Source: Acidimicrobiia bacterium
GTDB taxonomy: Bacteria; Actinomycetota; Acidimicrobiia; Spongiisociales; Spongiisociaceae
DNA: 17,345 nucleotides
Assembly (NCBI GenBank): GCA_041576165.1
Contig: JBFGLM010000078.1
Coordinates: forward strand, 1 to 17,345
Direction of reading: 5' to 3'
Part shown: one piece after another, positions 230-17,286 of the stretch
Numbering within the stretch: position 1 is the stretch's first letter
Layout: every line of letters starts with the position of its first letter
Made by a program: the position numbers and the translations under genes
The notes under the pieces: generated by a model
What the model saw: only the letters and a program-made list of their open reading frames with translations
What the model was told of the DNA's origin: nothing
The model's database searches: none

Positions 230-246
230 TCGCGCGGCAGGATCGG

Positions 247-1275: not shown

Positions 1276-1310
1276 GGACGCGGACCTTACCGATGTGGTA
1301 GCAAACCGGC

Positions 1311-2477
1311 ATGCACGATGAGGAAGCACGCGGATTTCAGCTAATCGGCCACTCGGATCTGGGCGGCTACGGCGACGGTATGCAACTGATGCGCGCCGGC
1401 GACGCCCTGTATGTCGGCCACTTCGGGCCGTCCGGGATGGGGACGTCGATTCTCGACGTCTCCGACGTCACGAGTCCCAAGCTGGTCCACCAGTGGCCGG
1501 CTCCCGCTCACAGTCACACTCACAAGGTGCAGGTGGCCGACGGGCTCCTGTTGACCAACCATGAGCGGTTTCGCAGCGACGATCCTTGGTCGGCGGGCAT
1601 GGCCGTATACGATCTCTCCGATCCGTTCGCCCCCAGGCAGGTCGGGTTCTGGGAATCCACTGGGCGGGGGGTGCATCGGATCGTCTACGAGGGCGGACGC
1701 TACGCCTACTTGTCGGCAGCTCCCGATGGATTCGATGACCGGATCTGGGTGATCGTCGATCTCGACGATCCGGCGGCTCCGGTCGAAGTCGGTCGCTGGT
1801 GGTGGCCCGGGCAGTGGGTTGCGGGCGGGGAGGTGCCCGACTGGCCGCCGGGTCAGAATTGGAACACGCACCATGCCATGGTGCAGGGGGAGCGGGCTTA
1901 CCTCGGTTTCTGGGACGGCGGCATGGTGATCTTGAACATCTCCGATCTCAGCGCGCCGACGGTCATCTCGCATCTCAACTGGGACGAGGGCGGCGAGACC
2001 CACACCTGCCTTCCGTTGCCTGGCCGCGATCTGGTCGTGGTCACCGACGAGGCGACCACGGACGGGTGTGAAGGTCCGCCTCACATGGTTCGGGTGGTCG
2101 ATGTCAGTGATGAGCGCGATCCGCATGTCCTCGCCATCTGCCCGGAGCCGGAGGGCGACTTCTGCGACCGCGGCCTACGCTTTGGGGCCCACTGCCTCCA
2201 CGAGAACCGCCCCGACAGCTACCGCAGCGAGGAGTTGATGTTCGTGACGTATTTCAACGCCGGCCTGCGCGTGTACGACCTGGCGGACCCCAGCTCCCCG
2301 CAGGAGATCGCCGCGTACGTTCCGCAGTGTCCCCCCGGTCAGCAAGCCATTCAGATAAACGATGTGTGGGTCGGCGAAGACCATCTCGTCTACATCTCAG
2401 ATCGCGTCACCGGTGGGGTCTACATACTCGAACCAGCCGCCGCGCTGCGCGCCCGCATGGTGGAAGCCGCGTTATGA
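1311..2477 (+). CDS. LVIVD-repeat beta-propeller protein
   Basis: Repeated blades ILDVSDVTSPKLV, VYDLSDPFAPRQVG, IVDLDDPAAPVEVG, ILNISDLSAP, VVDVSDERDP, VYDLADPSSPQEIA. 388 aa; stop overlaps the next start (ATGA). Confidence 0.88.
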   Translation: MHDEEARGFQLIGHSDLGGYGDGMQLMRAGDALYVGHFGPSGMGTSILDVSDVTSPKLVHQWPAPAHSHTHKVQVADGLLLTNHERFRSDDPWSAGMAVYDLSDPFAPRQVGFWESTGRGVHRIVYEGGRYAYLSAAPDGFDDRIWVIVDLDDPAAPVEVGRWWWPGQWVAGGEVPDWPPGQNWNTHHAMVQGERAYLGFWDGGMVILNISDLSAPTVISHLNWDEGGETHTCLPLPGRDLVVVTDEATTDGCEGPPHMVRVVDVSDERDPHVLAICPEPEGDFCDRGLRFGAHCLHENRPDSYRSEELMFVTYFNAGLRVYDLADPSSPQEIAAYVPQCPPGQQAIQINDVWVGEDHLVYISDRVTGGVYILEPAAALRARMVEAAL

Positions 2478-3457
2478 GCATCGACGTCCACGCTCATTGC
2501 GTGCCTGCCGAGCTGCTCGATGCATTGGCTACGGACGGAGCCGACTTCGACATCGAGCTGACGGACGATCGGCGGGCGGTGATCGCGGGCGGCAAGCCGA
2601 CGATGGCAATCCGCGACGACCTGGTCGATTCTCCCGCCCGGCTGGCGGCTATGGACGCGGCCGGCATCGAGATCCAGGTGTTGTCGAGCTGGGTGAACCT
2701 CACCGCCTACGGGCTGGATGCTGCCCACGGAGAGCGCTGGTCGCGTCGGGTCAACGAGGCGCTGGCCGCCGAGGCCGCTCGCCATCCAGACCGTTTCTTG
2801 GCGCTGGCCACCGTTCCTCTGCAGGAGCCGCAGATGGCGGCCGCAGAGCTGCGGCACGCCACCACTGAACTGGGGATGGTCGGCATCGAGATCGCCACGA
2901 CCGTGGCCGGAGTCGATCTGGTGGCCGCCGAACTGGAGCCGTTTTGGGCCGCGGCGGCGGAGCTGGGCAGCCTGGTGTTGCTGCATCCCATGGATCCGCT
3001 TCCCGGCATCGATCTGAAGCAGCACTTCCTGGACAACATGGTCGGCCGACCGGCGGAGACGACCATCGCCATCGCCCGCCTGATCATGGCCGGCCTTTTC
3101 GATCGCCATCCCGATCTGCGCGTATGTGTGGTGCACGGCGGTGGTTTCCTGCCCTATCAGGTGGGTCGTATGCAGCGTGGATGGACCGCTAAGCCGGCGC
3201 TGGCAGCCACCGACCTGGAAACGGCGCCGATCGAGACGATCAAGCGGCTGTACTTCGACACGATCGTGCACAACCCGTTGGCGCTGCGCTATCTGATCGA
3301 CCTGGTGGGAGCGGACCGGATCACCCTCGGTACCGACTATCCCTTCGAGGCCGGCGATCCCGATCCGATCGGCACGGTGGACGCGGTCCCGGGTCTCACC
3401 GCAGAGGAGCGCGAGTGGATCGTCGCCGGCACCGCCCGGAAACTGCTGGGCCGCTGA
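2474..3457 (+). CDS. Amidohydrolase family 2 protein (ACMSD/decarboxylase-like)
   Basis: Starts MSIDVHAH (HxH metal motif) at ATG 2474, coupled to the upstream stop. LLHP, VHGGGF, LYFDT and GTDYPF motifs. Confidence 0.92.
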   Translation: MSIDVHAHCVPAELLDALATDGADFDIELTDDRRAVIAGGKPTMAIRDDLVDSPARLAAMDAAGIEIQVLSSWVNLTAYGLDAAHGERWSRRVNEALAAEAARHPDRFLALATVPLQEPQMAAAELRHATTELGMVGIEIATTVAGVDLVAAELEPFWAAAAELGSLVLLHPMDPLPGIDLKQHFLDNMVGRPAETTIAIARLIMAGLFDRHPDLRVCVVHGGGFLPYQVGRMQRGWTAKPALAATDLETAPIETIKRLYFDTIVHNPLALRYLIDLVGADRITLGTDYPFEAGDPDPIGTVDAVPGLTAEEREWIVAGTARKLLGR

Positions 3458-3478
3458 CCGTATTGGAGCCGACTGCTA

Positions 3479-3769
3479 TCAGATGAACGTGCCTTCCTCC
3501 GTGTCCTTGACTGCGTGCAGCCGGTCGATCAGCCACAGCATCTCGGTGAGCACTTCGTCTTCCAGCAGCCGGGTCATCGTCTCCGCCTTGCCGATGAACT
3601 GACGGAAGCGCTTGACGAGCGCATGATTCGGGTCGTCACTGGCCGCTTCCTCGTCGATCAGGCGGCCCAGCAGCTCCCGATATTCGTCGATCCGCTCGAG
3701 CAGCTCATAGAAGGCAGCCTCCACCGGTTCGGTGCGGGCCTTGACCTGTTCGTATTTGCTCACAGCCAT
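3479..3769 (-). CDS. Small acidic alpha-helical hypothetical protein (96 aa), coupled to the selenoprotein gene
   Basis: MAVSKYEQVKARTEPVEAAFYELLERIDEYRELLGRL...TEEGTFI. ATG 3769 overlaps the last 10 nt of the upstream gene. Amphipathic helix pattern and GC-typical codon use. Confidence 0.75.
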   Translation of the reverse strand: MAVSKYEQVKARTEPVEAAFYELLERIDEYRELLGRLIDEEAASDDPNHALVKRFRQFIGKAETMTRLLEDEVLTEMLWLIDRLHAVKDTEEGTFI

Positions 3770-4548
3770 TTCTTCCAGCGTCGCCAACGGTAGGGAAGTT
3801 CGATCACGGTAGGTGCCGCCGCCGTCTCCAGCAGCTGAAGCAGATCCTCGAGCACCAGGTGGTGCTGGGCCGGCTGATGGGGCTCGCCGAACGGGTTCCC
3901 CAGCGGGAAGCGCACGTAGGCGGCACGCGAAACGTTCATGAACAGGGTGATCTCCGGACGCAGCGTCAGGCTCACGGTGGCGATGCCGACTCTTTCGATG
4001 GCACCCTGCACCAGCCCGACCGACCGGTGACACATTGGTCAGCCAGGAGCGAGAATCGCCACGTCCACCTCGGCCGTCTGCAGCTCTGCCGCCACGGCCG
4101 GACCGGTCTCGTCCGCAATCGGAGTCGGGTCGGGGTTGAAACCCATCATGCCGATGTGGATGGGGGAGGAGGCGCCGAGTCGCCGGCTGGTGACGATCTC
4201 GGCGAGCCGAGCGATCGGCAGCACGACGTTCGGATCCTGGGCGGCGCTACTCGTGTCGTAGTGGGTGTGCGCAAAGCGCAAACTGGTCAGGTCGACGTCG
4301 TCGGGAATCACGCGAAAGCTGGCATCGCCGGCGATCGTGGCAGTGTGAAACGGCTCCTGGTCGGCGAGGTGGGCGCCGGCCGTCGTCACGAGGGCGACGC
4401 GTGATTCGCTGAGCGGCTTTCCCAAAGGCGTGAATACCGGCTGATCGTTCACCCGATGGTTGGTGGCTCCATGGCTCGCCGCGATGCGCTCCAGCCAAGC
4501 CTGGTATTTCTCCCGAAAGTCGTTCGGGTCGAGCGCAGTCATTGCCAC
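3760..4548 (-). CDS. PrdB/GrdB-like reductase selenoprotein B; in-frame UGA (4041-4039) = selenocysteine
   Basis: ORFs 4039..(4548) and 3760..4035 share one frame and join as ...VDVAILAPG-U-PMCHRSVGLVQGAIERVGIATVSL...; PrdB from memory reads TAGUGTCHRS. N-half has KPLSESRVALVTTAGAH, GDASFRVIP, HYD...DPNVVLP; C-half has PLGNPFGEPH and LPY. GGAGG RBS lies 8 nt before GTG 4548 (alternative ATG 4542). Confidence 0.9.
4007..4032 (-). promoter_or_regulatory. Bacterial SECIS-like hairpin directly 3' of the Sec UGA
   Basis: mRNA: UGA CCAAUG UG-U-CACCGGUC GGUCG GGCUGGUG-CA. 8-bp stem with 2 G-U pairs, extended by UG/CA past a bulged U. The G-initiated loop starts 17 nt after the UGA and contains GGUC as in the E. 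coli fdhF SECIS. Confidence 0.8.
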
Positions 4549-4586
4549 GGCGGTAGCCTCCCCGGGATCCAGCGCAGAGGAATCTA

Positions 4587-5726
4587 ATGACTGCAACTCT
4601 CGGTTTCGCTCCCAGCGAGGACCCGTTCGTCGTCGAGCATGGCGGCTTCTATCGCCGCTGGCTGTCGATGATCGACGACTTGAGCGAGCTGGAATCGATC
4701 GTCGCCCAGTTGGAGAGCACCACCGAGGACAAGTGGATCCCGGTGTGGAAAGCGGCTGGAGAGCGCCACGAGGCCGTAGGGGACCGGCTGGAGGCGGCCG
4801 GGGACTACGAGGGCGCCCGGCGTGCGTACCTCCAGGCCAAGACCTACTACGCCATTGGGCGGTTTCCGGGTGAGATAACGCCCGCCAAGGCAGCGGTGAG
4901 CGCCGACTGTGCCCGGGCCTATCGCAAAGCCTGCCAGCATCTCGACCCTCCGCTCGAGATCGTCGAAGTCGAGTGCGATGGCCAGAACGTGAGGGCCCAT
5001 TTCCGGGCACCCGCCGGCGCCGGCGCCGACGAGCCTGCGCCGGCTGTGCTGATCATGTGCGGCGCCGACGTGTTCAAGGAGGATCGCGGCTGGGCGGGGG
5101 AGATGGCGCTGGACGAGGGTCTGGCTTCACTCGTCATGGACGGACCGGGCACCGGGGAGAACCCCTTCCCCTGGGACCCCGCCTCCGTCAAGGCCTGGAT
5201 CGCCGCCATCGACTTCCTGGCCGCCCGACCCGAGGTGGACCGAGACCGGATCGCCGCCTTCGGCATCAGCCGCGGGGGCTACTCGGTGATGCAGCTGGCC
5301 GGGGAGTACGCGGAGATGGTCAAGGCGGTGGTGGCCATCGCCGGGCATCCCTTCGGCTACCGCATGACGGAAGTAGAGCTCGACGCCTTCATTGCGGCGC
5401 GCAACAAGCGCGCCACCTTCGTCTTTGGTGAGCCCGGGGGGCCTCCTTCGTTCCCCACGTGGTCGCGAGAGCGGGAAGAGGAGATCTTCTCGAAGTGGGC
5501 GCTGTCGGAGTTGGGCATCCTGGACAACATCACACAGCCGATCCTCATGATCAACGGCAAGCTCGATCATCTGGCGCCCGTCGGCAACATCTACTTCATG
5601 CTCGAGCACGGCCCGGTCACCGGCCGCGAGGCCCGGATCTATCCCGACGCCGGCCACTGTGCGTTCAAGTACTACCGGGAATGGGCGCCGGCATCGTTTG
5701 CCTGGATCCGGGACAAGCTCGGCTAG
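4587..5726 (+). CDS. Alpha/beta hydrolase, FrsA / 2,6-dihydroxy-pseudooxynicotine hydrolase-like
   Basis: Nucleophile elbow GISRGG, CGADVFKED, DGPGTGE, catalytic Asp (GKLD) and His (DAGHC), N-terminal helical cap. GAGGA RBS just upstream. Confidence 0.88.
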   Translation: MTATLGFAPSEDPFVVEHGGFYRRWLSMIDDLSELESIVAQLESTTEDKWIPVWKAAGERHEAVGDRLEAAGDYEGARRAYLQAKTYYAIGRFPGEITPAKAAVSADCARAYRKACQHLDPPLEIVEVECDGQNVRAHFRAPAGAGADEPAPAVLIMCGADVFKEDRGWAGEMALDEGLASLVMDGPGTGENPFPWDPASVKAWIAAIDFLAARPEVDRDRIAAFGISRGGYSVMQLAGEYAEMVKAVVAIAGHPFGYRMTEVELDAFIAARNKRATFVFGEPGGPPSFPTWSREREEEIFSKWALSELGILDNITQPILMINGKLDHLAPVGNIYFMLEHGPVTGREARIYPDAGHCAFKYYREWAPASFAWIRDKLG

Positions 5727-5740
5727 CGGCCGACGGCACG

Positions 5741-6676
5741 ATGGAGATGCAGTACCGCCGGCTCGGCCGCACCGAGCTCGAGGTGTCCCGCCTGTCTCTC
5801 GGCACCGGCGGCCCCAACCGCATGGGCCAGAAACGCGGTGCAGACCGCGACGACATGATCGCGCTGGTTCACGGTGCTCTCGACCTCGGAGTGAACCTGT
5901 TCGACACGTCACCCAGGTACATGGAGAGCGAAGTGGTCCTTGGAGAGGCGCTGCGTGCGGTGCACAGGGACCGGTACCTGGTCACGACCAAGTTCCACCC
6001 GGGTTATGAAGGCCCCATTCCCGATGCGGCGGAACTCGCCGAGTCGGTGGAGTCGAGCTTGCGGCGCCTCGCCACCGACCACATCGACGTTCTCTTCCTG
6101 CACAGCGTGACCCCGGATCGGTACGAGGCAGCGCTCGATCAGCTCATGCCCGAGATGGAACGGCTTCGGGACAAGGGCCTGATCCGCCACCTCGGCATGA
6201 CTGAGTCGCCGGTCTTCGATCCGACCCACGTGAGCCTGAGCCGAGCGGTCGCGGATGGACGCTTCGACGTTGTGATGGTCGTCTACAACCTGCTGAATCA
6301 GACGGCCGCAGACGAGCTCCTGCCGGCGGCCGCCGCAGCCGAGGTGGGAGTGGTCGGCATGATCGCCGTGGGTCGGCAGCTCAGCAGCCACGAACAGGTG
6401 GACGCGCTCTTGCAGGATTGGGCGGACCGTGGCCTCGTCGATTCGCCGGAAGACGGCCTCAGGTGGCTGATATCTGGTGACGTTCGCTCCCTCGCCGACG
6501 CCGCGTACCGGTTTGCCGCGGCCCCGCCGGAAATGACCACGGTGCTCACCGGCACTGCCAACCTCAGCCATCTGCACGACAACATCGCATCCATCCTCGG
6601 CCCGGCGCTTGCGGAGTCCCACGTGGATCGGTTACGCGAGCTGTTTTTCGGAGTCGCCGAGCCGGTAGCTCGCTGA
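5741..6676 (+). CDS. Aldo/keto reductase
   Basis: MEMQYRRLGRTELEVSRLSLGT, FDTSPRY, VTTK, SLRRLATDHIDVLFLH (D/Y/K/H tetrad present). Start 5741 or 5747. Confidence 0.92.
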   Translation: MEMQYRRLGRTELEVSRLSLGTGGPNRMGQKRGADRDDMIALVHGALDLGVNLFDTSPRYMESEVVLGEALRAVHRDRYLVTTKFHPGYEGPIPDAAELAESVESSLRRLATDHIDVLFLHSVTPDRYEAALDQLMPEMERLRDKGLIRHLGMTESPVFDPTHVSLSRAVADGRFDVVMVVYNLLNQTAADELLPAAAAAEVGVVGMIAVGRQLSSHEQVDALLQDWADRGLVDSPEDGLRWLISGDVRSLADAAYRFAAAPPEMTTVLTGTANLSHLHDNIASILGPALAESHVDRLRELFFGVAEPVAR

Positions 6677-6780
6677 GGCGTAACCGCACACCGCAGTGCC
6701 GTTATCGGACACCTGGCGGAATGTTCGTTACTGCGCCGTATTTGGTGATCGGTGCGGCCGGTGTCTGACCGGGATGGTTT

Positions 6781-6930
6781 CTACGGGGCCACCGCATGCC
6801 GTTGCTGTTGGCGAAGTCGCTTCTCGACCCAATAGTGGGCGAACGGCTCGTCGTTGAACGGGGCTACCTCTTCGTAGCCGGCCGAGTGGTACACGCTGAT
6901 CGCCTCACGCATCGCCTTGTTGGTTTCTTG
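6781..6930 (-). pseudogene. Orphan C-terminal fragment of a GNAT N-acetyltransferase (MarR-GNAT-like tail)
   Basis: Hand translation, not in the ORF track: QETNKAMREAISVYHSAGYEEVAPFNDEPFAHYWVEKRLRQQQRHAVAP*. Matches the GNAT motif-B pattern 'ETN..L.EA..LY...GY....PFN.EP.AH.W.EK.L'. No N-terminal portion present. Confidence 0.72.
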
Positions 6931-6945
6931 GCTGAGCAGTGCCCG

Positions 6946-7650
6946 TCAGATGGCGCGATTGATCCTCGTCAGGTGGGCGTTGAAGTTGGCCTTAGGATCG
7001 GAGCGTCGTTGCGAGAGGAATTCATCCAGCTCGAAGGCCTCGCCCAGAGCTGTGCCCGACGCGATCTCCTGGGCCAACGCCTCCTCTTGCTGGCGGGCGG
7101 CCTCAGCAGCCTCAACGATCTGATCCAGACCGTTCTCGCCAAGGATGATCACCCCGTCCGCATCTCCGAAGATCCACATCCCCGGACTTACGGTGGCTCC
7201 ACCCACGGAAATATCCCCGCCGACCTCACCGATGCCCCTTAGCTCGGCGGACACTTTGAGGGGACCGGCCGGGTGGGAACCCCGACAGAAGACGGGAAGT
7301 CCCATGGCAGTCAGTGCGACCGTATCGCGCACCAGGCCATCGACCACGAACCCGGCGAGCCCTTTGCGAACCGCTTCAGTTCCGATCAGATCGCCCATCA
7401 GAGCTGCTGGAACACTCTGGTTGGAGATCACGACAACGTCACCGGGCTCGGCCTGGTGCACCGCGTCCAAGATCGAGACCAAGTCGGTTTGGGCGTTTAC
7501 GGTGACCGCCGGACCAGCCAGCTTGCTGGCTCGATCCAGCGGATGGAGGCCCGGTGCGGGAAGACCGAGGGCGATTCCCGTCCGAAACGCCGAGTCTGCC
7601 AAGAGTGATGTGCTGTAACTCTGCCTGAAGAGATCTGCATAGTCCGTCAT
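6946..7650 (-). CDS. RraA family protein (HMG/CHA aldolase-like)
   Basis: AGPAVTV, PGDVVVI, ALMGDLI, GFVVDGLVRD, VGGATVSPG.WIFGDADGV. GGAG RBS at 7658-7655. Confidence 0.9.
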   Translation of the reverse strand: MTDYADLFRQSYSTSLLADSAFRTGIALGLPAPGLHPLDRASKLAGPAVTVNAQTDLVSILDAVHQAEPGDVVVISNQSVPAALMGDLIGTEAVRKGLAGFVVDGLVRDTVALTAMGLPVFCRGSHPAGPLKVSAELRGIGEVGGDISVGGATVSPGMWIFGDADGVIILGENGLDQIVEAAEAARQQEEALAQEIASGTALGEAFELDEFLSQRRSDPKANFNAHLTRINRAI

Positions 7651-7859
7651 CCGGCTCCTGGTTCGCTACCCCGGTACGTTAGGCCGTGCTGCCATTGGCC
7701 TGGGGCCCGATCTGCGGCCCGCTGGCCACACGCCCAGATCACCCACCACGACGAGCAATCTCGCGCACCATCTGCCGAGCCGATCCGGCAGGGAGGGTGT
7801 TGGGGTGCGCTGATCGTGGTGAGTGGCTGTCACCCTCGGCTGGGATCTACGGTTGGTTT

Positions 7860-8038
7860 GTTCCTGGGGTTGGCTTGGCTCACGAACCGGCTGACGCCTC
7901 GATGGTTGGGGTTGTCTTTCGAATGACTCGCCGGCGGGCCCCGGGAACGGCACTCACCGGTCGGGCGGGAGACTGTCACCGGTCCTGTTAACGCCAGGCC
8001 CGGTGGTCTCTGGTCCACCCTCCCGGCAAGTGCGTGCC
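7860..8038 (+). ncRNA. Putative bridge-RNA-like module 1 (left non-coding end)
   Basis: Stem GTTCCTGGGG(7860-69)/CCCCGGGAAC(7939-48) encloses a large internal loop and an AACC/GGTT inner hairpin. A second domain follows, closed by GGCAC(7949-53)/GTGCC(8034-38). Confidence 0.6.
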
Positions 8039-8062
8039 ACCCCTATCCGCTAGTGAGGAGGG

Positions 8063-9116
8063 ATGGCAATGACCATCGTAGGAACCAACCCGGAGGCAGT
8101 GATCGGCGGTGTCGATACCCATGCCGATGTCCATGTGGCTGCTGTGATCAACCATGTTGGAGGTGTGGTTGGTATTGAATCGTTCGCAACGACCCAGGCG
8201 GGGTATCGCCGGTTGGTGTCATGGCTCGGCTCTCATGGCGAGCTGGCGCTGGTCGGCGTTGAGGGCACCGGCTCCTACGGGGTTGGACTGGCCCGCTACC
8301 TAACCCGAGCCGGTATCTCAGTCGTTGAAGTCGATCGACCGAACCGCCAGACACGCCATCGTAAGGGCAAGGTCGGACCCGGTCGATGCAGTAGCCGCGG
8401 CCCGAGCGGCGCTATCGGGAACCGCGTCGGGGTTGCCGAAGACCCGCGACGGCAACGTTGAAGCGATCCGGGTGTTGATGATTACCCGCCGGTCTGCCAT
8501 CGATACCCGTATCGAGACACTCAACCAGCTCCGCCACGTGATCTTCACCGCTTCACCACAGATCCGAGCCAAGTTCACTGGACTCACCGCTATTGCAGTG
8601 GCGAACAAAGCCGCCGCCCTCAAACCCCGCGACGGTGACGACCAGGTCCGCTACATCACCCTGGCCACAATCCGCCCTCTGGGGAAACGAGTGCAGTACC
8701 TGCGCCAAGAGACCAAAGGCATCGACCGCCAGCTGTGTCCCTTACTCCGGCACACCGCACCCGGCCTCCTCGAGGTCTACGGCGTCGGACACACCACTGC
8801 GGCCAAGCTATTGGTCGCAGTTGGCGACAACCCGCAACGGATCCGATCCGAAGCCGCCTTCGCTCACCTGTGCGGGGTCGCCCCTATCCCGGCATCATCG
8901 GGGAAGACCGTCCGGCATCGACTGAACCGGGGCGGTAACCGGCAAGCCAACTCGGCGCTGTTCCACATCGTGCTCACCCGCATGAAACACCACCAAGAAA
9001 CCCGCGACTACGTCGCCAGGCGACTCGCCGAGGGCAAAACCATGGGCGAGATCGCCCGCATCCTGAAACGCTACGTCGCCCGTGAGGTCTTCAAACACCT
9101 CCCCCGACCCACCTGA
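8063..9116 (+). pseudogene. IS110 transposase/recombinase with a single extra G at 8371-8372 (350 aa if repaired)
   Basis: GGVDTH and GVEGTGSYG in frame 8063; GGC AAG G TCG GAC CCG GTC GAT breaks the conserved GKSDPVDA. Continues in ORF 8325..9116 with GVAPIPASSG, HRLNRGGNRQAN, LKRYVAREV. GAGGAGG RBS. Confidence 0.92.
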
Positions 9117-9124
9117 GCTCCCCC

Positions 9125-9300
9125 GGTCGGGGTTCTGGCCCGATAGAACCGGCTCACACCTGCGGGTTGTGCAACGAATGACCTGCCGGCCCCGACCACC
9201 CTGACACAGCCGGACCGGCCCCAGTGTGACCTCCAACGAGCGTGCCCCCCACCAACGCGTGGGTGGCTCTTCCCTGTCGTGTCCACTGAAGCCACTCCGG
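9125..9300 (+). ncRNA. Putative bridge-RNA-like module 2 (right non-coding end)
   Basis: Stem GGTCGGGG(9125-32)/CCCCGACC(9190-97) with an internal loop homologous to module 1. Second domain CCGGA/TCCGG and CAGTG(9222-26)/CACTG(9284-88) has loop segments ACGAGC and CTTC matching the element end ACGAGCTTC (9374-82). Confidence 0.65.
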
Positions 9301-9362
9301 ACAACCACCCGGCACCCGCCGGCCAACTCAACGCGCCCAAACCGCGCCCAGCAAGAAACCCC

Positions 9363-9368
9363 TTGACA
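9363..9368 (+). promoter_or_regulatory. Outward-facing -35 hexamer (TTGACA) at the IS110 right end
   Basis: Perfect TTGACA 14 nt before the inferred element end; typical half of an IS110 circle-junction promoter. Confidence 0.7.
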
Positions 9369-9386
9369 AACATACGAGCTTCAATC

Positions 9387-9407
9387 TGCGCTAGCCGCAC
9401 TAGCGCA
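9387..9407. repeat. Perfect 8-bp inverted repeat immediately outside the IS110 right end
   Basis: TGCGCTAG-ccgca-CTAGCGCA. Confidence 0.7.
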
Positions 9408-9513
9408 ATGCTCCCCGGATCGTTGCGGGCGCGCCTCTGTGCCGGCACTGCTGCCGGATACTCGGTTGGTTTGGGAGAGGGTGGTGGTTGGCTTGGCCGC
9501 CGACCTGCGGGCT

Positions 9514-10656
9514 CTACCCGTCGGGTGGGGCTCGGGTGGCGCCGGGGGCGAGGAAGCGTCTTCGGCCGGGTGGCGAATGGGGGTCGATCCGGAATCCGTA
9601 TTGGTGGACGACGACATGGTGGTGGAACCAACACATGAGCACGAGGCCGTCTGGGTCGTGGTCGCCGCCGTTGGCTTGGTGGACGATGTGGTGCGGTTCT
9701 AGCCGGTAACGGGAAGTGCATCCGTCGGCTTGGCAACCTCCGTCTCGGAAGAACACGTAATCCCGGATGCGGTGCGGGAGACGGTCGCCATCAGTAGGGA
9801 CAGCCTTCAAGCCGTTCACGTCGACGAGGGTGGTTCGGGTGTCCCCGACGCAGAGGATCTCTTCGAGCGTGTTTGGACCGACCTTGATTCCGGAGCGTGT
9901 GGTGGCCCCCGCCTCGCCACGGGTGCGTTGACACTCTGTGGCGTCGACGAAGATGTGAGCGGGAAGCCGCCGCGGTGCCGACCCATCTGATACGACTGGC
10001 GCCACGTCATCCAACGCCAGAGAAACCAGCGCATCGACCCTGCGTTGTTCGAGGCGGGGGCGGTGCTCATCGCCGGGATCGACGATCTCGTCGACACGCC
10101 TATCGAGAGCAGTCAGGACTGCCTCCATGTCGGCTCCGGTCATCACGAACGATCCAGTAGCCAGCGTGCTCCCGAGGTTGGGTTGGAACCACAACCGGCG
10201 CGCCTTGAATGCCGTCGTCTCGTCGACAGGCGTCGTGCGGCGGTGCCGGGCCATCAACTGACCCAGCTGCCCTAGCGACAACCCAGCGGCGCGCTCCAGC
10301 ACGACGTCCGAAGCACCCGCGTTCTCTAGCCGTGCCATACCCGCAGCTCGGTCCGTCGACGCCACGCCGGCACGGAGGGAATCGTGAACCTCCACCGAAC
10401 CCGACTTGGCCAGAACAGCCAGATCGGAGGCGTTGCGCGGTTGGATGTCGAGGCGGCCCGCGATCCACTCCTGCAAGGAACGGCAGCCGTCCCAGGCGGG
10501 AACTTGTAGATGATCAATTGCGGCAAGGATCTCGACCTGGCGGGCCCGGGTACGAGAGACGAGACCTTCGAGACGCTGCAACTCGGTTTCCATCTGGTCG
10601 ACCGTTTGGAACGACTCAGTGACCCGATCCACATCGATTGTCGTAGTGGACAACAT
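9514..10656 (-). CDS. DUF222-like / HNH endonuclease domain protein (13E12/REP13E12-like)
   Basis: N-terminal W..DGCRSLQEWIA, QRRVDALV; C-terminal RDGGCQADGC...EPHHIVHQANGGDHDPDGLVLMCWFHHHVVVH; ends with the typical RAPP. Confidence 0.9.
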   Translation of the reverse strand: MLSTTTIDVDRVTESFQTVDQMETELQRLEGLVSRTRARQVEILAAIDHLQVPAWDGCRSLQEWIAGRLDIQPRNASDLAVLAKSGSVEVHDSLRAGVASTDRAAGMARLENAGASDVVLERAAGLSLGQLGQLMARHRRTTPVDETTAFKARRLWFQPNLGSTLATGSFVMTGADMEAVLTALDRRVDEIVDPGDEHRPRLEQRRVDALVSLALDDVAPVVSDGSAPRRLPAHIFVDATECQRTRGEAGATTRSGIKVGPNTLEEILCVGDTRTTLVDVNGLKAVPTDGDRLPHRIRDYVFFRDGGCQADGCTSRYRLEPHHIVHQANGGDHDPDGLVLMCWFHHHVVVHQYGFRIDPHSPPGRRRFLAPGATRAPPDG

Positions 10657-10662
10657 GAAAAC

Positions 10663-10685
10663 ATAGTAACGGACAAATGTGACAA
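10663..10685 (-). promoter_or_regulatory. PafBC / RecA-NDp-type DNA-damage promoter for a probably leaderless HNH transcript
   Basis: Minus strand: tTGTCAC-atttgtccgt(10 nt)-TACTAT-gttttc-ATG(10656), versus consensus TGTCRG-N10-TA-N3-T. No SD sequence. Confidence 0.7.
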
Positions 10686-10809
10686 GAAAGATTGGTTAGA
10701 TACACTTGAGCAAAGAAATGTTGCGGGATTTCGGTGCGAACGAAAGGCCACACCCGCGCCTCAGCTTCCCCCTCCGACCCGCTGCTCCGCAGCGGCCCAG
10801 CCTCCGGCA

Positions 10810-10999
10810 GTTTGCAGAGCAAACTGCTTCGAGTTTGTTCCACAAACTCGCCCCAACGCTCACTCCATTCGCTGGAGGAGGGATACCGTCGCAAGCACGC
10901 CACAGTCCCCCGCCCCTGCTGGCACCCCCTCGCCAACCGCCTGCGGCGGTCTGTTACCGACGTTTGTGGGGCAAACTCGTACGGGATTGCCCCAGCAAC
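10810..10999. repeat. Two copies of a 38-bp imperfect palindrome (REP-like) at 10810-10847 and 10962-10999
   Basis: GTTTGCAGAGCAAACTGCTTCGAGTTTGTTCCACAAAC vs GTTTGTGGGGCAAACTCGTACGGGATTGCCCCAGCAAC; 26/38 identical by hand count, and each can fold as a hairpin. Confidence 0.7.
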
Positions 11000-11146
11000 C
11001 ACGCCCCCAACCGGGGGTACCAACAGACGCCGCCACTAGACACGCAACCGGACCCGGCACCACCATCGCCTTCGCTGCAAACCGACCCACCTCACCACAA
11101 GCCCACCTTGCGCAGCACCGAGTGACCGCCCTGAAAGCGCCTCCGA

Positions 11147-11998
11147 TCACGCCAGCGGCGCGAGTGCCTCGGCAATGCGCGGAACCGTCTCGTCGTCGAA
11201 CGGCGCAAACGCCGTCACCACGATGTGGTCGGCGCCTGCCGCCAGAAACCCGCCTGCCAGGTTGGTGAGCTCTTCACGACTGTCCGGCATCCGCATCTGC
11301 GCCGAGACCTCGATTTCGTTCGGGTCCCGACCTGCCGCAGTGCACAGGTCCTCGAGGCGCGTCCTGTACTCCGCCAGCACCTCAGGCGGTTCGCCCGGAT
11401 TGAAGTAGTTCCAATGGTCTGCCCATCTCGCCACGAGGGGAAGGGTGCGCTGAGGCCCGATCCCCCCAATCACAAAGGGCGGCCGGGGCTGCTGAACGGT
11501 CTGGTGCAGGAGCCGAGCATCGCTGAGCTCGAAGTGATCGCCCGAGAAGCTATATGACTCTTGCGTGAGCAGCCCATCGATGATCTCGAGGGCCTCGGCG
11601 AATCGCCCCCACCGGGTGGGCGCGTCGCCAAGGTCGATCCCGAACGCATCGTGCTCAGCCTGGTTCCATCCGGCGCCGAGCCCGATCTCGAGACGCCCAT
11701 TCGAGATCTCGTCAACGGATGCCGCCATGTGCGCCAGCAGCGCTGGGTGACGGACCGTGTTCGAACTGACCATGACGCCGAGCCGCAGCCGAGAGGTCAC
11801 AGCCGCCAGCGACGCCAGCAGGGTCCATGCCTCCCATGTCGGCCTGATCGGCCCCCGCGACGGGTAGAAGTGGTCGAGCAGCCAACCGGCCGCAAAGAAA
11901 CCATCCTCGTCGGCGGCACGCCACATCTGAGAGAGCTGCACCCACGAGACGTCGATCGGCGCAGTCTTGAAGGAGAACTTCGGCCGACCGTCTTTCAT
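11147..11998 (-). CDS. LLM-class flavin (probably F420)-dependent oxidoreductase
   Basis: MKDGRPKFSFKT..., GWLLDHF, WTLLASLAAVTSRLRLGVMV, RHPALLAHMAASVDEISNGRLEIGLGAGW, IGGIG. Confidence 0.92.
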   Translation of the reverse strand: MKDGRPKFSFKTAPIDVSWVQLSQMWRAADEDGFFAAGWLLDHFYPSRGPIRPTWEAWTLLASLAAVTSRLRLGVMVSSNTVRHPALLAHMAASVDEISNGRLEIGLGAGWNQAEHDAFGIDLGDAPTRWGRFAEALEIIDGLLTQESYSFSGDHFELSDARLLHQTVQQPRPPFVIGGIGPQRTLPLVARWADHWNYFNPGEPPEVLAEYRTRLEDLCTAAGRDPNEIEVSAQMRMPDSREELTNLAGGFLAAGADHIVVTAFAPFDDETVPRIAEALAPLA

Positions 11999-12014
11999 CG
12001 CGTAGCGCCGTCCT

Positions 12015-13073
12015 TCACGGCGAGACGCCGACACCCTCCAGGAGCGGCTTGAGCTCCACCGCCTTGCCGTTCTGAGCTGAAGACTCGAGGGCGGCGCGCA
12101 CGACTGCCAGCGCCCGGATGGCTTCGTCGATACCGACCTCCACCGTCGCCTTGCCACGGATGGCGAGCGCGAACTCGTCGAGCTGCTCGCGGAACATGTC
12201 GGTGGCCGGCAGCTGAACGTCCTTGCGGGTCATATCTCCGTAACCCTGCGACACCAGACTGCTCCACTCGTCGGCTTGATGGGACTCGTCCCAGTGGGTG
12301 AAGTCGAGGTCGTACATCAAGTTGGCTTTGGTTCCCTGCAGGCGCAGTTGGTAGATCCCCGGAGACGCCCAGCCGCACCCGATGTATCCCAGGGCTCCAG
12401 ATTCGAACTCGAGGATCGCCATCACCGCGTCGGGCACCTCCGACTTGGTGTACAGCTTGCGGGCGTGGGCGCTGACTTGGCCGACCGGGCCGAGCAGGTA
12501 CTGCAGGTTGTCGGCGTGGTGGACGCCGAGCTGGATGAACGTGCCCCCGGGGCTCTTGTCGGCATACCACCGCCACGTCTCAGTGGTTAGCTCGAGCCCG
12601 CGCTCGTTGGAGAAGTTGGCTTCGGCGAGAGAGACCCCGCCCAGGCTGCCGTCGTCGATCCACTGCTTCATGACTCGGCAGCCCGACAAGCGGCGAGCGC
12701 TGTGTCCGACCGCGAAGACGCCGCCGGTCCGCTCTACGGCGTTGCGGACGTCGAGCGCGTGCTCGAGCGTGTGGGCGATCGGCTTGTCCGTGTAGACCGC
12801 TTTCCCCGCCTCCAGCGCCGCCACGATGAGGTCGCGGTGGGTGTCGTTGGGGGTGGTGATGATCACCCCTTCGATATCGGCGTCGGCGAGCAACTCGTCG
12901 AGGGTCGCCGCCGCTTTTGGTACTGCGAACTCATCTTGGAAGGCCGCCCGCTTCTCTGTGGACCGGCTGAAGCACGACGCCAGTTCGATGACGTCGCCGC
13001 GCTGGGCGCCGCGCGCCAGGACTCGAGCCCATCGTCCCAGCCCTATAGGGGCCAAGCGCACCTTGTCAGTCAT
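12015..13073 (-). CDS. Gfo/Idh/MocA family NAD(P)-dependent oxidoreductase
   Basis: IGLGRWA, ITTPNDTH, ALEAGKAVYTDKP, PGGTFIQLGVHHAD. Confidence 0.92.
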   Translation of the reverse strand: MTDKVRLAPIGLGRWARVLARGAQRGDVIELASCFSRSTEKRAAFQDEFAVPKAAATLDELLADADIEGVIITTPNDTHRDLIVAALEAGKAVYTDKPIAHTLEHALDVRNAVERTGGVFAVGHSARRLSGCRVMKQWIDDGSLGGVSLAEANFSNERGLELTTETWRWYADKSPGGTFIQLGVHHADNLQYLLGPVGQVSAHARKLYTKSEVPDAVMAILEFESGALGYIGCGWASPGIYQLRLQGTKANLMYDLDFTHWDESHQADEWSSLVSQGYGDMTRKDVQLPATDMFREQLDEFALAIRGKATVEVGIDEAIRALAVVRAALESSAQNGKAVELKPLLEGVGVSP

Positions 13074-13446
13074 CGGTCATCTCCTCCATCACGTCGATCT
13101 CGGTTTCTTCGATGTTCTCGGGGAGCAGGGGGTGGGGAAAGAAGCAGATCAGCTCCATCTCTTCCGCTTTGTCCGGCACGGTGGCGTGGGCCGCGCCGCG
13201 GGGGATGTGAATAGTGTCGCCCGGCCCGATACGGTGGAAAGTCCCCTCGATGTAGACGGCACCGGTGCCGCCCCGAACGTAGATCACTTCCTCGCTGTGG
13301 GGATGCCGATGCGCCTTGCGCACCGCAGTCCGCTGCGGCCGGGCGATCCGCAGGCTCGACTCCGCCCCTACCGATCGCAACGGATCTCCGGATGTCCGCC
13401 CGGGGAGATCGACGAACTCGACTGCGGTGGCAGGTGTCACCGTCAT
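13066..13446 (-). CDS. Cupin domain protein
   Basis: HRHPHSEEVIYVRGG and GDTIHIPRGAAH cupin motifs; overlaps both neighbours. Confidence 0.92.
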   Translation of the reverse strand: MTVTPATAVEFVDLPGRTSGDPLRSVGAESSLRIARPQRTAVRKAHRHPHSEEVIYVRGGTGAVYIEGTFHRIGPGDTIHIPRGAAHATVPDKAEEMELICFFPHPLLPENIEETEIDVMEEMTDD

Positions 13447-14195
13447 TGCCGCAGCTCGAAGATCGCCGTGACCTGCTTGACGATGTCGCTCGCCACGGTT
13501 GCGGTGAATTCGGCGGCCACGTCGGCCGTCGCCCAGCCTGGTTCCCCGTACCAGCCATCGGCGTCGATCTCGGTGACATCGGTGATGTAGCCGTACACCT
13601 CGCGCCCGCGCCGCATGGCGTCCATGGCTGCCGCCCGGGGAGGGCGGGCGCTGTCTCCGGCCCGATCCGTGTGCGCGAGATCGGGATCGTGCGCCATCAC
13701 AGCCAGCGTCTCGATGCCACCACCGTGGGTCAATTCGCCGCCATGGGCGGCGTAGAGCCGCTGCGCCACGTAGCAGGCGTGGGCCGACACGACATGGACG
13801 TGGGCATGGCGCTGCTGGATGTCGGTGGCCACCGCGTCCATGGCGGCAATATTGCCCTCATGCCAGTTGACGAATACGAAACGCTCGGCCCCCATGGCGA
13901 CCATCTCGTTGCACACATCGGTAAGCAACGCCTCGAAAGTCGCCCGCCGCAAGCTGACCGTGCCTGGGTGGCCAGCGTGAATCGGGGTGATGCCGTACGG
14001 TCCGAACGGCACGAGCAGGGCGTCGAGATCGGCGGCGACTGCGGCGGCCACCAGCTCGGCTGCCATCGTGTCCGTCCCGGTGGGCAGATGCGGCCCGTGC
14101 TGCTCCACGCTGCCGAAGGGGATCACCGCAACCGGCGACCGCTCCAGAAATGCAGCCACCTCCGAGCTCGTCAAGTCGTACAGGGAGTTGCTCAC
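13443..14195 (-). CDS. Creatininase / creatinine amidohydrolase family protein
   Basis: PFGSVEQHGPHLPTGTD, HAGHPGTVSL, NWHEGN, HGGGIET. GTG start with GGAGG RBS. Confidence 0.92.
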   Translation of the reverse strand: MSNSLYDLTSSEVAAFLERSPVAVIPFGSVEQHGPHLPTGTDTMAAELVAAAVAADLDALLVPFGPYGITPIHAGHPGTVSLRRATFEALLTDVCNEMVAMGAERFVFVNWHEGNIAAMDAVATDIQQRHAHVHVVSAHACYVAQRLYAAHGGELTHGGGIETLAVMAHDPDLAHTDRAGDSARPPRAAAMDAMRRGREVYGYITDVTEIDADGWYGEPGWATADVAAEFTATVASDIVKQVTAIFELRQ

Positions 14196-15151
14196 GAAGC
14201 CTCCTTGGGTAGCAGCACCGGGTGGAGCGGAGGTTGCCCGTGGAGTAGCCGCCTTCCTTCCTCGGCCGTCTTGATCCGCAGCGTCTGCTCCGATTCTTCG
14301 GTATACCAGGCGACGTGGGGCGTCATGATGACTTGATCGATGACTGCGGCGAAGCTGGCCGGATCGGCCGGCTCCGGATCGAACACATCCAGAGCAGCTA
14401 CTCCTGGCCTGCCCTTTCGGAGTCCCTCCACCAGCGCCGCCGCGTCGATCAACGTGCCGCGGGCAGTGTTGACCAGGACGCTGCCCGATCGCATGAGCGC
14501 AATCTCGTCACGCCCGATCAAGGGTGCTCCTTCCTGGGAGCCGGGGGCGTGGAGGCTCAGCACATCGGATTCGGCCAGCGTTTCCCGCAGCGATGTTGCT
14601 TCGATGCCGGGCTCGTGGATCGCAACGTGAGCGTCGTAGGCGACCGTCCGCCCGAAGCCGAGATCGCGGAAATGACGAGCCGTCAGCCGCCCGATGCGAC
14701 CGAACCCGATGACTCCAGCGGTCAGGGCAGCGGGGAGGTGCAGCGGACGGACGGCTGTGAAGTCCCATACTCGAGCTTTGACCATTCGATCGAGGGCTGG
14801 GATCCGCCGCATTCCCGCCAGCGCGAGTGCGGTCGCATGGAGGGCTACGGCTTCCGTCCCGTAGTCCGGGACGAACGCGACGGCGATGCCCTTCTGAGTG
14901 GCGGCGGCAACGTCGATGTTGTCGTAGCCGACTCCGTAGCGAACGATGCCGCGACAGCTCAGCCGATCGAGGGTAGCGGCGTCGAACCGTGGACGAGGAC
15001 CGGCGAGGATCACGTCGGCGCCGGCCGCGGCCGCAACGATGGCCTCCTGGGTCTCTCCAGGATCGCGGACGATGGCATCTTCGGCCACGCCGAGGACGTC
15101 CCGTTCGATGGCGACATCCGGCCAGCGGGCACCGATTATCGCCACGGTCAT
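14192..15151 (-). CDS. D-isomer-specific 2-hydroxyacid dehydrogenase (CtBP/SerA-like)
   Basis: MTVAIIG..., RYGVGYDNID, GVIGFGRIG, VNTARG, ALDVFDPEP, TPHVAWY. Confidence 0.92.
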   Translation of the reverse strand: MTVAIIGARWPDVAIERDVLGVAEDAIVRDPGETQEAIVAAAAGADVILAGPRPRFDAATLDRLSCRGIVRYGVGYDNIDVAAATQKGIAVAFVPDYGTEAVALHATALALAGMRRIPALDRMVKARVWDFTAVRPLHLPAALTAGVIGFGRIGRLTARHFRDLGFGRTVAYDAHVAIHEPGIEATSLRETLAESDVLSLHAPGSQEGAPLIGRDEIALMRSGSVLVNTARGTLIDAAALVEGLRKGRPGVAALDVFDPEPADPASFAAVIDQVIMTPHVAWYTEESEQTLRIKTAEEGRRLLHGQPPLHPVLLPKEAS

Positions 15152-15358
15152 ACCTAGCCAACCTCTCCCGAGCCACCATGCGATCAGGTATCGCGGCTCG
15201 TTATGCGCCCGGTCAGTGTCGGGAGCATAGATGGGGGAGTAGCGGCGATCGCAACCCGATCCTGCACCCATGGCACCCATCGGGGCGGGAGCGATCGAGG
15301 CCCGACGAAGACCAGACCGGCGCCGCCGTAGCTGCCGTACCGGAGGCGCGGTGCAGTG

Positions 15359-15471
15359 CCGCAACCGTTTGCGGCTCAATTGACATGCCCCCTGCCGAGG
15401 TCGTATTTTCCTGCCAGGAGTGAAGCTGCAATCGTTTGCAGAGCTGCCTCGGTAGGCTTGCACCGGTGCAA
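15359..15471. promoter_or_regulatory. Three LacI-type palindromic operators
   Basis: CCGCAACCGTTTGCGG (15359-74), CTGCAATCGTTTGCAG (15426-41), TTGCACCGGTGCAA (15458-71). The first two fit TGNAANCGNTTNCA fully or nearly. Confidence 0.7.
15380..15409 (+). promoter_or_regulatory. Housekeeping sigma promoter for the ABC transporter
   Basis: TTGACA(15380-85)-18 nt-TATTTT(15404-09). Confidence 0.7.
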
Positions 15472-15498
15472 CTTCGACGAAGCATGAGGAAGGTTGGC

Positions 15499-17286
15499 AT
15501 GAATCGAAGTAGACGGTCCAGTCGTTGGGGTGCGTTGCTCAGCGCCCTGCTCGCGCTCGCATTGATCGCGGCGGCCTGCTCGGACGACGAGGGCGACGGT
15601 CCCGGCACGACGGCGGCCACCACTGCCGGTACGACCGCAACGACGACAGGGGACACTACGGGGACCACGGCGGCGGCCACGACAACCTCCCCACCCGATA
15701 CCGGCGGTGAAGTGAATAACCCCGGGGTCTTCGTGCACGCGGCAGACGACGAGCCGACGACGCTTGATCCCGCCCAAGTGGAACCGGGCGAGGGCGGCGA
15801 GACGGTGATCCTCCAGGTCTACGAGCGTCTTCTCGAGATCGGCACGGTTGGTCCCGACCCGGTACCCAGCCTGGCCACCGAGGTTCCAAGTGTTACTAAC
15901 GGCCTCATCAGCGCCGACGGACTGACGTACACGTTCCCGATCCGCCAGGGCGTTACGTTCCACGATGGCTCACCGCTGACCGCGGACGACGTCCTGTTCT
16001 CGTGGGAGCGGGTCATGACGATGGATCTTCCCGAGGGTGCTGCCGGCGTGCTGTCTGACACGGTCGACAGCATGCGCATGGTGGACGACTTCACGTTCGA
16101 AGTAACTCTGCAGGAGCCGAACGCGGCTTTCCTCAACGCGGTCGTGCCGGCGATGGTGTCCTCCATCGTGAGCCGAGCGTATGTCGAGGCCAACGGCGGC
16201 GTCGTCGCAGGTGAGGGGAACGAGGTCATGGCCGGCAACCCGAACGGCACCGGGCCGTATAGCTTTGTGGCCTGGAACCGCAGCGAGAACCTCCAGTTCG
16301 AGGTGTTCGACGGCTACTGGGGCACGCCTGCCAACCTCGATCTGCGCATCGTGATCGGCGCCAACCCGGACGTGCGCGTGCTTGGGCTGCGGGCCGGCGA
16401 CTACGACACGATCGAGACCGACCCCTCGTTCATCGACGACATCGTGGGCGCCGAAGGAGTCACGATCTTCGCCGAGGGGCTGACGGTGGAGCCGATCCAC
16501 ATCGGCTTCAACCTGAAGTACAACCCGGATGATCTGCCGGATTCGGACAGGATTCCGGAAGGGATGTTGGAGGACCCGCGGGTACGCCAAGCGTTCAACT
16601 ACGTGTTCAACTACAGCGCATTCGTTGACTCCGCTCTCGGCGGATTCGGCGACTACAACCCGCACTACATCCCGCAAGGGATCTTCGGATACGACCCAGC
16701 GGCGCCTCGCTATGACACTCAGGACCTGGCCAAGGCCGAGGAACTGTTCCGCGCTGCCGGCGTCTGGGACGAGGGATTCTCGATCTCGGTGGTCACCGAA
16801 GAAGCCAACCTCTTCGAGGTGGCGGCCCTGGTCTTCAAGGACTCGATCGACCAGCTCGGCAACCCGAACTTCAACATCACGGTTGCTTCGGTGGCCGAAG
16901 CCGTGTTCGACGAGGCCCACGCCTCGGATCCGGTGCCGTATGCGATGTGGGTGAAGAACGCCGATCCGTTCGCCGACCCGCACGCCTACGTCGACTCCTA
17001 CACCCACCCCGATGGGGAGTGGGGCGAGATCCACGACTTCCGCGCCGGCTACCAGGACCCGGATCGGATTGCCGATCTGATCGACCGGGCCAAAGTGGAG
17101 CTGGATCCTGCAGCCCGCGCTGCTCTGTACTCTGAGCTGCAGCAGGTGCTGTTCGAGGATCCGATGTGGCTGATCGCAGCTCAAGAGGGTGTGGTTTCGG
17201 CCCGCCGTGACTGGGTGACCGGATTCATCTCGAACCCACTGTGGCCGCGACCCAGCCTGAAGTTCGCCCTGATGGACAAGGGCTGA
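15499..17286 (+). CDS. ABC transporter substrate-binding lipoprotein, family 5 (peptide/nickel/opine type)
   Basis: Signal peptide with lipobox LIAAAC, Thr-rich linker, TLDPA, SADGLTYTFPIRQGVTFHDGSPLTADDV, GTGPY, DPRVRQA. Start 15499 (RBS GAGGAAGG) or 15484. Confidence 0.95.
   Translation: MNRSRRSSRWGALLSALLALALIAAACSDDEGDGPGTTAATTAGTTATTTGDTTGTTAAATTTSPPDTGGEVNNPGVFVHAADDEPTTLDPAQVEPGEGGETVILQVYERLLEIGTVGPDPVPSLATEVPSVTNGLISADGLTYTFPIRQGVTFHDGSPLTADDVLFSWERVMTMDLPEGAAGVLSDTVDSMRMVDDFTFEVTLQEPNAAFLNAVVPAMVSSIVSRAYVEANGGVVAGEGNEVMAGNPNGTGPYSFVAWNRSENLQFEVFDGYWGTPANLDLRIVIGANPDVRVLGLRAGDYDTIETDPSFIDDIVGAEGVTIFAEGLTVEPIHIGFNLKYNPDDLPDSDRIPEGMLEDPRVRQAFNYVFNYSAFVDSALGGFGDYNPHYIPQGIFGYDPAAPRYDTQDLAKAEELFRAAGVWDEGFSISVVTEEANLFEVAALVFKDSIDQLGNPNFNITVASVAEAVFDEAHASDPVPYAMWVKNADPFADPHAYVDSYTHPDGEWGEIHDFRAGYQDPDRIADLIDRAKVELDPAARAALYSELQQVLFEDPMWLIAAQEGVVSARRDWVTGFISNPLWPRPSLKFALMDKG

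Follow-up and report, generated by a model that had tools for sequence, protein, structure and literature searches.

The DNA analysed here, called the window throughout, is the whole of a 17,345-nt stretch from an Acidimicrobiia bacterium (assembly GCA_041576165.1, contig JBFGLM010000078.1, positions 1 to 17,345), and it holds an insertion sequence of the IS110 family with a recombinase gene between two non-coding ends. An earlier note, made from the letters alone, had claimed that this element carries two homologous bridge-RNA-like modules, one on each side of the recombinase gene, and might therefore encode two guide RNAs. Here, we compare the element with its relatives and with characterised members of the family. 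What lies at the locus is a single IS110-family element with a complete IS621-type bridge RNA at its right end, consisting of a target-binding loop (TBL) and a donor-binding loop (DBL), and with a paralogous, stand-alone TBL in the 5′ untranslated region (UTR) at its left end. We hold this anatomy with high confidence. Whether the left loop also serves as a guide is, in our judgement, an even bet, and much of the argument below turns on it.

The limits of the element were set by comparing filled and empty sites. Empty sites read ..GA(T/A)CCGG-CA-ATCTG.. in two contigs of the same genome (C9 and C124) and in three other genomes (L024, L025 and L027), and the filled site in the window reads ..GATCCGG-CA-[element]-CA-ATCTGCGC; hence the element has the ends given in Table 1, with both modules inside. 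Full-length homologues in two other genomes, 82% and 79% identical, match the window over 7782-9391 and 7783-9396, respectively. The non-coding ends measure 272 nt on the left and 267 nt on the right, and the first and last 45 nt share no inverted match longer than 5 nt. Site-specific insertion around a short core at both junctions, together with the lack of terminal inverted repeats, is what is found in the IS110 family, and the recombinase agrees: its Pfam matches (PF01548, E = 2.6e-11; PF02371, E = 2.3e-20) are those of an IS110-family enzyme. The gene is spread over two overlapping frames, 8063-8461 with the N-terminal DEDD domain and 8325-9116 with the C-terminal Transposase_20 domain. 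In a tblastn comparison, an intact relative follows frame 2 of the window up to approximately 8380 and frame 3 from approximately 8337, and this change of frame within 8337-8380 points to a +1 frameshift near 8371. In an RNA library, one contig from a relative has one base fewer at 8371, that is, it lacks the extra base. The recombinase frame is open in relatives of the L031 or L002 type. The near-identical locus L051, which is the window's own locus in another assembly (1 mismatch in 2,846 nt), has in-frame stops in the translated matched region.

Table 1 Features of the IS110-family element and its insertion site in the window.
Feature	Position	Strand	Basis or remarks
IS110-family insertion sequence	7791-9383	+	1,593 bp, right core CA (9382-9383) counted; homologue ends, filled and empty sites
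Left flank, conserved repeated sequence carrying the target	7731-7788	+	Left target half GATCCGG 7782-7788; same sequence at empty sites
Core dinucleotide CA, left copy	7789-7790	+	Filled/empty comparison
Putative -10 hexamer GAGGGT	7793-7798	+	Promoter would exist only with the right end joined to the left end
Left-end stand-alone TBL	7860-7948	+	Model match 76.6 bits; covariation
Left TBL, outer stem	7860-7869 with 7939-7948	+	Covariation
Left TBL, inner stem	7876-7879 with 7930-7933	+	Covariation
Left TBL, left target guide	7883-7891	+
Left TBL, hairpin	7893-7916	+
Left TBL, right target guide	7922-7925	+
Left TBL, handshake bases	7926-7927	+
Long conserved 5′-UTR stem, then ribosome-binding region	7949-8045	+	Not a DBL in this element type
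Recombinase gene, DEDD/RuvC-like and Transposase_20 domains	8063-9116	+	+1 frameshift near 8371
Right-end TBL	9125-9197	+	Model match 71.7 bits; covariation
Right TBL, outer stem	9125-9132 with 9190-9197	+
Right TBL, inner stem	9136-9139 with 9185-9188	+
Right TBL, left target guide	9145-9153	+
Right TBL, hairpin	9155-9171	+
Right TBL, right target guide	9177-9180	+
Right TBL, handshake bases	9181-9182	+
DBL	9224-9283 (approx.)	+	Alignment of 63 right-end domains; donor-guide 6-mer
DBL, left donor guide	~9235-9241	+
DBL, inner hairpin	9245-9266	+
DBL, right donor guide	9271-9276	+
Right terminus	9363-9383	+	-35-like TTGACA 9363-9368; left donor half 9372-9381; core CA 9382-9383; conserved among relatives
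Right target half ATCTGCGC	9384-9391	+	Continues the empty-site sequence

The ordered motifs reported earlier at 7866-7943 and 9129-9194 are all at those places, and the modules that contain them are, as proposed, diverged direct copies with complementary closing stems: aligned with each other, left and right modules show a mean column identity of 76% over 99 columns. The loop segments that had been set against each other (7880-7883 versus 9140-9145, and 7916-7919 versus 9171-9174) do differ, but they are linkers, and the guides are the same. When single RNAs were folded, z was -3.40 and -1.40 for the plus strands versus -1.62 and -0.24 for the minus strands. We built a covariance model (R1) from eight left and eight right modules, giving a seed alignment of 16 rows with a consensus of 19 pairs, 11 of them with compensatory changes. 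Two of the 16 rows come from L008, a locus of the unpublished genome G032, which is not among the 79 public loci used below; its sequence enters the counts on those loci only through the model, and L008 is one example of an element carrying both modules. We applied the model to the window and to 79 related loci, taken from the best 80 of at least 538 confirmed relatives, and the relatives sampled are all Actinomycetota-type metagenome-assembled genomes. It recovered both modules of the window and gave 133 matches at E <= 0.01, every one on the strand of the recombinase. In the alignment of these 133 modules, which is biased toward the structure because it was fitted to the model, 94.3% of cells hold standard pairs versus 74.3% in shuffles and 24-55% with the partners slid, 16 of the 19 pairs changed on both sides, and the covariation score was reached by 0 of 500 shuffles. 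Covariation, the absence of which would have told against the earlier proposal, is therefore present. It is also present on either side taken separately, with 92.6% pairing and compensatory changes at 10 of 19 pairs for the left modules (46 distinct rows), and 95.3% pairing and 14 of 19 for the right modules. Right-end alignments show the right module retained in relatives at just 64-68% DNA identity. Left and right modules alike have the structure of a TBL, with a stem, an internal loop and a distal hairpin supported by covariation. An Rfam scan of the whole window gave nothing at E <= 1 within 7700-9450; a weak match at 16840-16883, outside the element, was set aside as a chance match.

Both modules, one on each side of the gene, are found in 45 of the 79 related loci, so the retention of a single module in homologues, another outcome that would have counted against the earlier note, is not the rule. 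A further 24 loci have the right module only, with the left region available, four have the left module only, five have the right module with the left region lying off the contig, and one is undecided. In the 45 two-module loci the left module lies 110-159 nt upstream of the start codon. In eight loci (L078, L080, L057, L062, L067, L086, L090 and L045) a third module follows the stop codon at a distance of 555-634 nt, and such three-module elements are 2,105-2,172 bp long when both ends are visible. The third module of L078 belongs to a 152-nt direct repeat (2238-2389 and 2818-2969, 91% identical and 580 nt apart); a 126-codon frame enclosed by the two repeat copies (2444-2824) matched no Pfam family.

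Since IS110 elements often insert side by side, and since a third module can follow the gene at some distance, the second module might be taken for the remnant of a nested or neighbouring IS110 element, as the earlier note allowed, or for a chance repeat. We regard this as extremely improbable. The ends set by filled and empty sites enclose both modules, the full-length homologues and a deletion derivative retain both, 45 of the 79 loci have one on each side at fixed distances, and no right-terminus motif lies between the two modules. As for deletion derivatives, L005 (1133-1717, minus strand) and L006 (3-405) are both shortened internally; L005 has its left end, which corresponds to window 7785-8001, fused directly to 9020-9389, with both modules kept and the recombinase gene lost, and it resembles a miniature non-autonomous element.

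The two ends differ in what follows the module. At the right end, the consensus of 63 loci consists of an outer stem, a stretch that runs in the same sense as the right terminus, then an inner hairpin and lastly a donor 6-mer. In the window, the left donor guide of this domain has the same sense as the right terminus at 9374-9379, and the right donor guide reads as the reverse complement of the core together with the four bases at the start of the left end. The donor 6-mer changes with the left terminus in five terminus classes: TCCCTG goes with CAGGGA, TCACTG with CAGTGA, TTCATG with CATGAA, TCTCTG with CAGAGA and TCCCAG with CTGGGA. The right domain carries the 6-mer of its own class in 41 of 44 relatives and those of other classes in 6 of 264 comparisons. 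An exact 6-mer of the left donor guide occurs in 18 of the 44 right domains, and many relatives show one constant mismatch at this place. Guides that match both termini, the mark of a DBL, are thus found in the right-end domain only and not at 7949-8045. Nine loci (L079, L074, L108, L096, L069, L073, L054, L102 and L061) have a DBL that weakly matches the TBL-only model (E 0.03-5), which agrees with a common origin of the two loops and with their published similarity.

The left domain could at first sight be a second DBL, in which case the element would encode two complete bridge RNAs, each a TBL with its own DBL, one per side of the gene. A stem-loop domain does follow each module, as the earlier note had it, and in the window the left one contains, at 8019-8027, a 9-nt reverse complement of the left terminus. 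However, this 9-mer is not kept in relatives, the left domain carries its own class's donor 6-mer in just 1 of 44 relatives (other classes' 6-mers in 12 of 264 comparisons), and the left stem is unchanged in elements without a left module. The two domains are therefore not homologous, the left one being a 5′-UTR stem; we rejected it as a DBL and consider two bridge RNAs highly improbable. With a DBL at the right end only, the element has one full bridge RNA and one stand-alone TBL. Of the earlier proposal of two guide RNAs, what stands is that both modules are conserved, structured and guide-bearing; the idea of two bridge RNAs falls.

The order of parts within each module is that of the IS621 TBL. 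The latter has a stem, a 9-nt left guide that reads the bottom strand, a hairpin, a 4-nt right guide that reads the top strand (core and two bases) and two handshake bases (Hiraizumi 2024, PMC11208158). Two other placements of the right target guide, as a right-flank complement inside the hairpin and as an arm of the inner stem, were dropped after the test of the IS621 layout. The two modules of the window have the same right guide, AAUG, and the same handshake bases, AC, and their left guides differ in the first base only; against the left flank, the left module is identical at 8 of 9 positions and the right module at 7 of 9. The suggestion that the window element has two target specificities therefore fails, since both modules carry the same guides.

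Across the relatives, the left guide follows the target. Compared with the element's own left flank and first core base, it is identical at a mean of 6.55 of 9 positions in left modules (n = 44; shuffled 5.99), 6.77 in right modules (n = 52; shuffled 5.49) and 8.29 in third modules (n = 7), and the values observed for left and right modules were reached in 0 of 2000 shuffled pairings. Unusual targets are still matched clearly (8-9 of 9 in L095, L057, L053 and L092). The window's own genome holds a second copy of the element, 85% identical and broken across contig ends (C87:12400-12540 and C2:1-150); the left flank of this copy matches the left guide at 9 of 9 positions. On the 3′ side, the final position of the right guide holds G in all 103 modules scored (39 left, 64 right). 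For the third base, pairing with the second base of the right junction is seen in 61 of 64 right modules, 34 of 39 left modules and all 6 third modules, mostly through changes of state between U with A and C with G, and once as G with C. The second base pairs poorly (29 of 64 right and 10 of 39 left modules). The first handshake base forms a pair with the final base of the right terminus in 64 of 64 right modules and in 32 of 39 left modules. The modules thus have a target-tracking guide on the 5′ side and, on the 3′ side, a guide with handshake bases. Left and right guides have diverged from each other in L077/L089, L084 and L092. L078 and L080 are the same three-module element at two sites, and the left flank at each site matches a different module at 9 of 9 positions.

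The junctions of many loci also bear on the core. In most of the more distant relatives the left junction reads C-A and the right junction C-G; the second 'core' base belongs to the right-hand side and is the base read by the right target guide. Because of this, the overlap shared by both junctions may consist of one C alone, which would set it apart from the CT core of IS621.

No sigma-70-like promoter was found within the integrated element. Joined to each other, as in a circle or a tandem, the right and left ends would form a promoter consisting of TTGACA, 17 nt and GAGGGT. Computed junctions of relatives show the same pattern: 42 of 44 have TTGAC(A/T/G) and then, at a spacing of 17 nt in 36 cases and 18 nt in six, a hexamer whose second base is A and whose sixth is T. 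Since TTGACA and the hexamer meet at the junction, the left end would be transcribed first in the joined form, and the first product of the junction promoter would be the stand-alone TBL; the right-end bridge RNA would be produced only where transcription ran on through the gene. Five terminator-like sites, two of them within the left end, were given no weight. Six RNA runs contain 5-10% of the sampled words, and contigs from four of them were compared with the window. These contigs, from relatives 90-99% alike, cover parts of 7782-9226, including 7785-8050 and 8739-9160, and the joint of right end to left end is absent from them.

A single synaptic complex of IS621 draws its target loop and its donor loop from different RNA molecules, and the separate loops are active in vitro (PMC11208158). 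Because such loops work separately, the left loop could be usable as an additional target guide while the right-end RNA provides the donor loop. With this extra TBL, more target-bound recombinase dimers would be available for insertion, and in relatives whose left guides have drifted the extra TBL would add a second specificity. Preprints describe donor-only recognition as enough for excision and, in another IS110 element, a TBL-only RNA as abundant and partly active, and the ratio of TBL to DBL could tune excision versus insertion. A wider reading, which we offer tentatively and with less confidence than the guide role itself, is that one DBL works with two to three separately encoded TBLs, that the left loop, made first, acts as a switch to insertion after excision, that drift of spare loops samples new targets while the old one is kept, and that the lineage forms a living series of bridge-RNA moves. 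The matches of the L078 and L080 sites to different loops fit such drift of spare loops toward new targets.

The history of the lineage can be read from elements that lack one of the modules. Three of the four left-only loci (L075, L100 and L109) have both TBL and DBL at the left end, and their right ends measure only ~35 nt; their guides match their own termini, and their DBL is nested inside the left stem that is a plain hairpin in the window. The fourth, L052, has a truncated right module, and no DBL was recognisable in it. On a FastTree of the recombinases, rooted by two more distant IS110 enzymes, the left-only elements branch first, two right-only elements come next and mixed clades follow; the remaining recombinases form one clade with a support of 88, on a tree that carries no bootstraps and has some long branches from frameshifted rows. 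Read from sequence comparison in this way, the pattern fits an ancestral left-end bridge RNA that would have been copied to the right, after which the left DBL would have been lost and the left TBL repeatedly lost or decayed. A move of the bridge RNA between ends has been inferred for the ancestor of the IS110 and IS1111 groups (Durrant 2024, PMC11208160). The lineage, found in Acidimicrobiia and other Actinomycetota, shows elements with the whole bridge RNA on the left, elements with the whole bridge RNA on the right, elements with a left loop and a right bridge RNA, and elements with three loops.

The same history could mean that the left module is now an evolutionary relic, a TBL left functionless and decaying once the ancestral left bridge RNA had been copied to the right and the left DBL lost. 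The basal position of the left-only elements suits it, and so do several observations that weigh against a working left loop. The right-only state requires at least seven changes on the tree, which would be repeated losses. In 11 of the 24 right-only loci, weak and shortened left matches remain at the homologous position (E 0.006-2.4, filters off). The left loop is dispensable in so far as 24 of the 79 loci have no good copy, a pattern that a slowly decaying relic would also show. Pairing of the second handshake base with the donor is seen in 11 of 39 left versus 35 of 64 right modules, and in some relatives the left guide mismatches its own flank (L089 1 of 9, L084 2 of 9, L092 3 of 9). Further limits on the explanation as a whole come from the nature of the sample and of the window copy. 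The loci are not independent, several being near-copies of one another, L051 included; guide and target are inherited together, so that kinship overstates the significance of the shuffles; 14 loci with doubtful left ends were removed before the guide, donor-6-mer and junction-promoter counts; the RNA-library contigs are without strand information and possibly derive from contaminating DNA, and give no direct evidence of transcription; and the window copy is a pseudogene, its frameshifted recombinase leaving it mobile only with an enzyme from another copy. We nevertheless think a relic unlikely. Left modules keep their pairing and compensatory changes across recombinases 55-94% identical to the query alignment, and left guides still track their own target (8 of 9 in L095, 9 of 9 in L057), as does the third base of the right guide; dead sequence is not expected to change in step with its target.

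A different role is conceivable for the same sequence. The left module could be mainly cis-regulatory, with the recombinase binding the loop in its own 5′ UTR and thereby controlling translation or stability of the mRNA. Its near-fixed distance from the start codon in the two-module loci is in keeping with this, the module adjoins the conserved stem and the ribosome-binding region, and its fold is that of the loop bound by the enzyme in IS621 (PMC11208158). However, a pure protein-binding site needs no guide bases that track the target. We find a mainly regulatory role quite improbable, and the two roles are compatible with each other. Taken together, we assign a probability of approximately 0.6 to the explanation as a whole, that is, to the anatomy described above combined with a guide role of the left loop.

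Compared with characterised systems, the element is closest in build to IS621 (Durrant 2024, PMC11208160; Hiraizumi 2024, PMC11208158), with the same TBL build followed by a DBL, a promoter split across the joined ends, and a DEDD recombinase with a Transposase_20 domain. It differs in that the full RNA lies downstream of the gene, whereas that of IS621 lies upstream, in having a second TBL in the left end, in its shared base (C, then A or G, versus CT in IS621) and in a left donor guide match that lies farther from the core. With the seekRNA of the IS1111 group (Siddiquee 2024, PMC11187229) it shares a guide RNA downstream of the recombinase gene and a long right non-coding region. However, IS1111 elements have subterminal inverted repeats of 7-17 bp, and their top-strand match lies 5′ of the bottom-strand match; the present element has the order of the IS110 types, bottom-strand match first, and its longest inverted match is 5 nt, so that it lacks both marks of the IS1111 group. 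A TBL without a DBL as its own RNA species is known from CazIS110-1, in which a TBL-only RNA is reported to be approximately 10-fold more abundant than the full RNA and able to drive one strand-transfer step (Sun 2025, 10.1101/2025.10.25.684509); there it arises as a truncated product of the single bridge RNA gene, whereas the present element encodes it in its own right at the opposite end. Of the more than 350 IS110-family entries in ISfinder, 26, such as ISHvo10 and ISAcp5, also have long non-coding regions on either side of the gene; the source does not state what these regions contain, and no duplicated guide is described there (Siddiquee 2024, PMC11187229). In the literature searched, which did not extend to the supplementary per-element tables of Durrant 2024 and Siddiquee 2024, the texts (Durrant 2024, Hiraizumi 2024 and 2026, Siddiquee 2024, Sun 2025, Xie 2026, and the preprints 10.1101/2024.06.21.599552 and 10.64898/2026.10.21.760802) give one RNA per element and we found no description of a duplicated target loop or second guide module, in line with the earlier note, which knew of no description of a dual-guide architecture.

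The target of the element is the end of a conserved repeat of ~60 nt (7731-7790 in the window) that is also present in other genomes. The window's genome has four copies, of which two are occupied by IS110 relatives and two are empty. A more distant relative, with a left end 67% identical, sits in another copy of the same target at C149:324-570. In the window the repeat is flanked by an RraA-like gene (6946-7650, minus strand) and a DUF222-like gene (9514-10656, minus strand).

Bridge recombinases have been described with one bispecific RNA at one end of the element. The lineage described here adds target-matched, TBL-only copies, placed at the other end or in tandem. The arrangement is shared by many relatives and shows how guides are copied and moved within an element, and the lineage holds intermediates for the proposed move of the bridge RNA between element ends. 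For tool design, it suggests combining one donor loop with more than one target loop. Should the spare loops be in use, target and donor recognition would be modular in nature and not only in the test tube, the ratio of TBL to DBL would be a possible control point between excision and insertion, and an element would have a route to a new target without loss of the old one.

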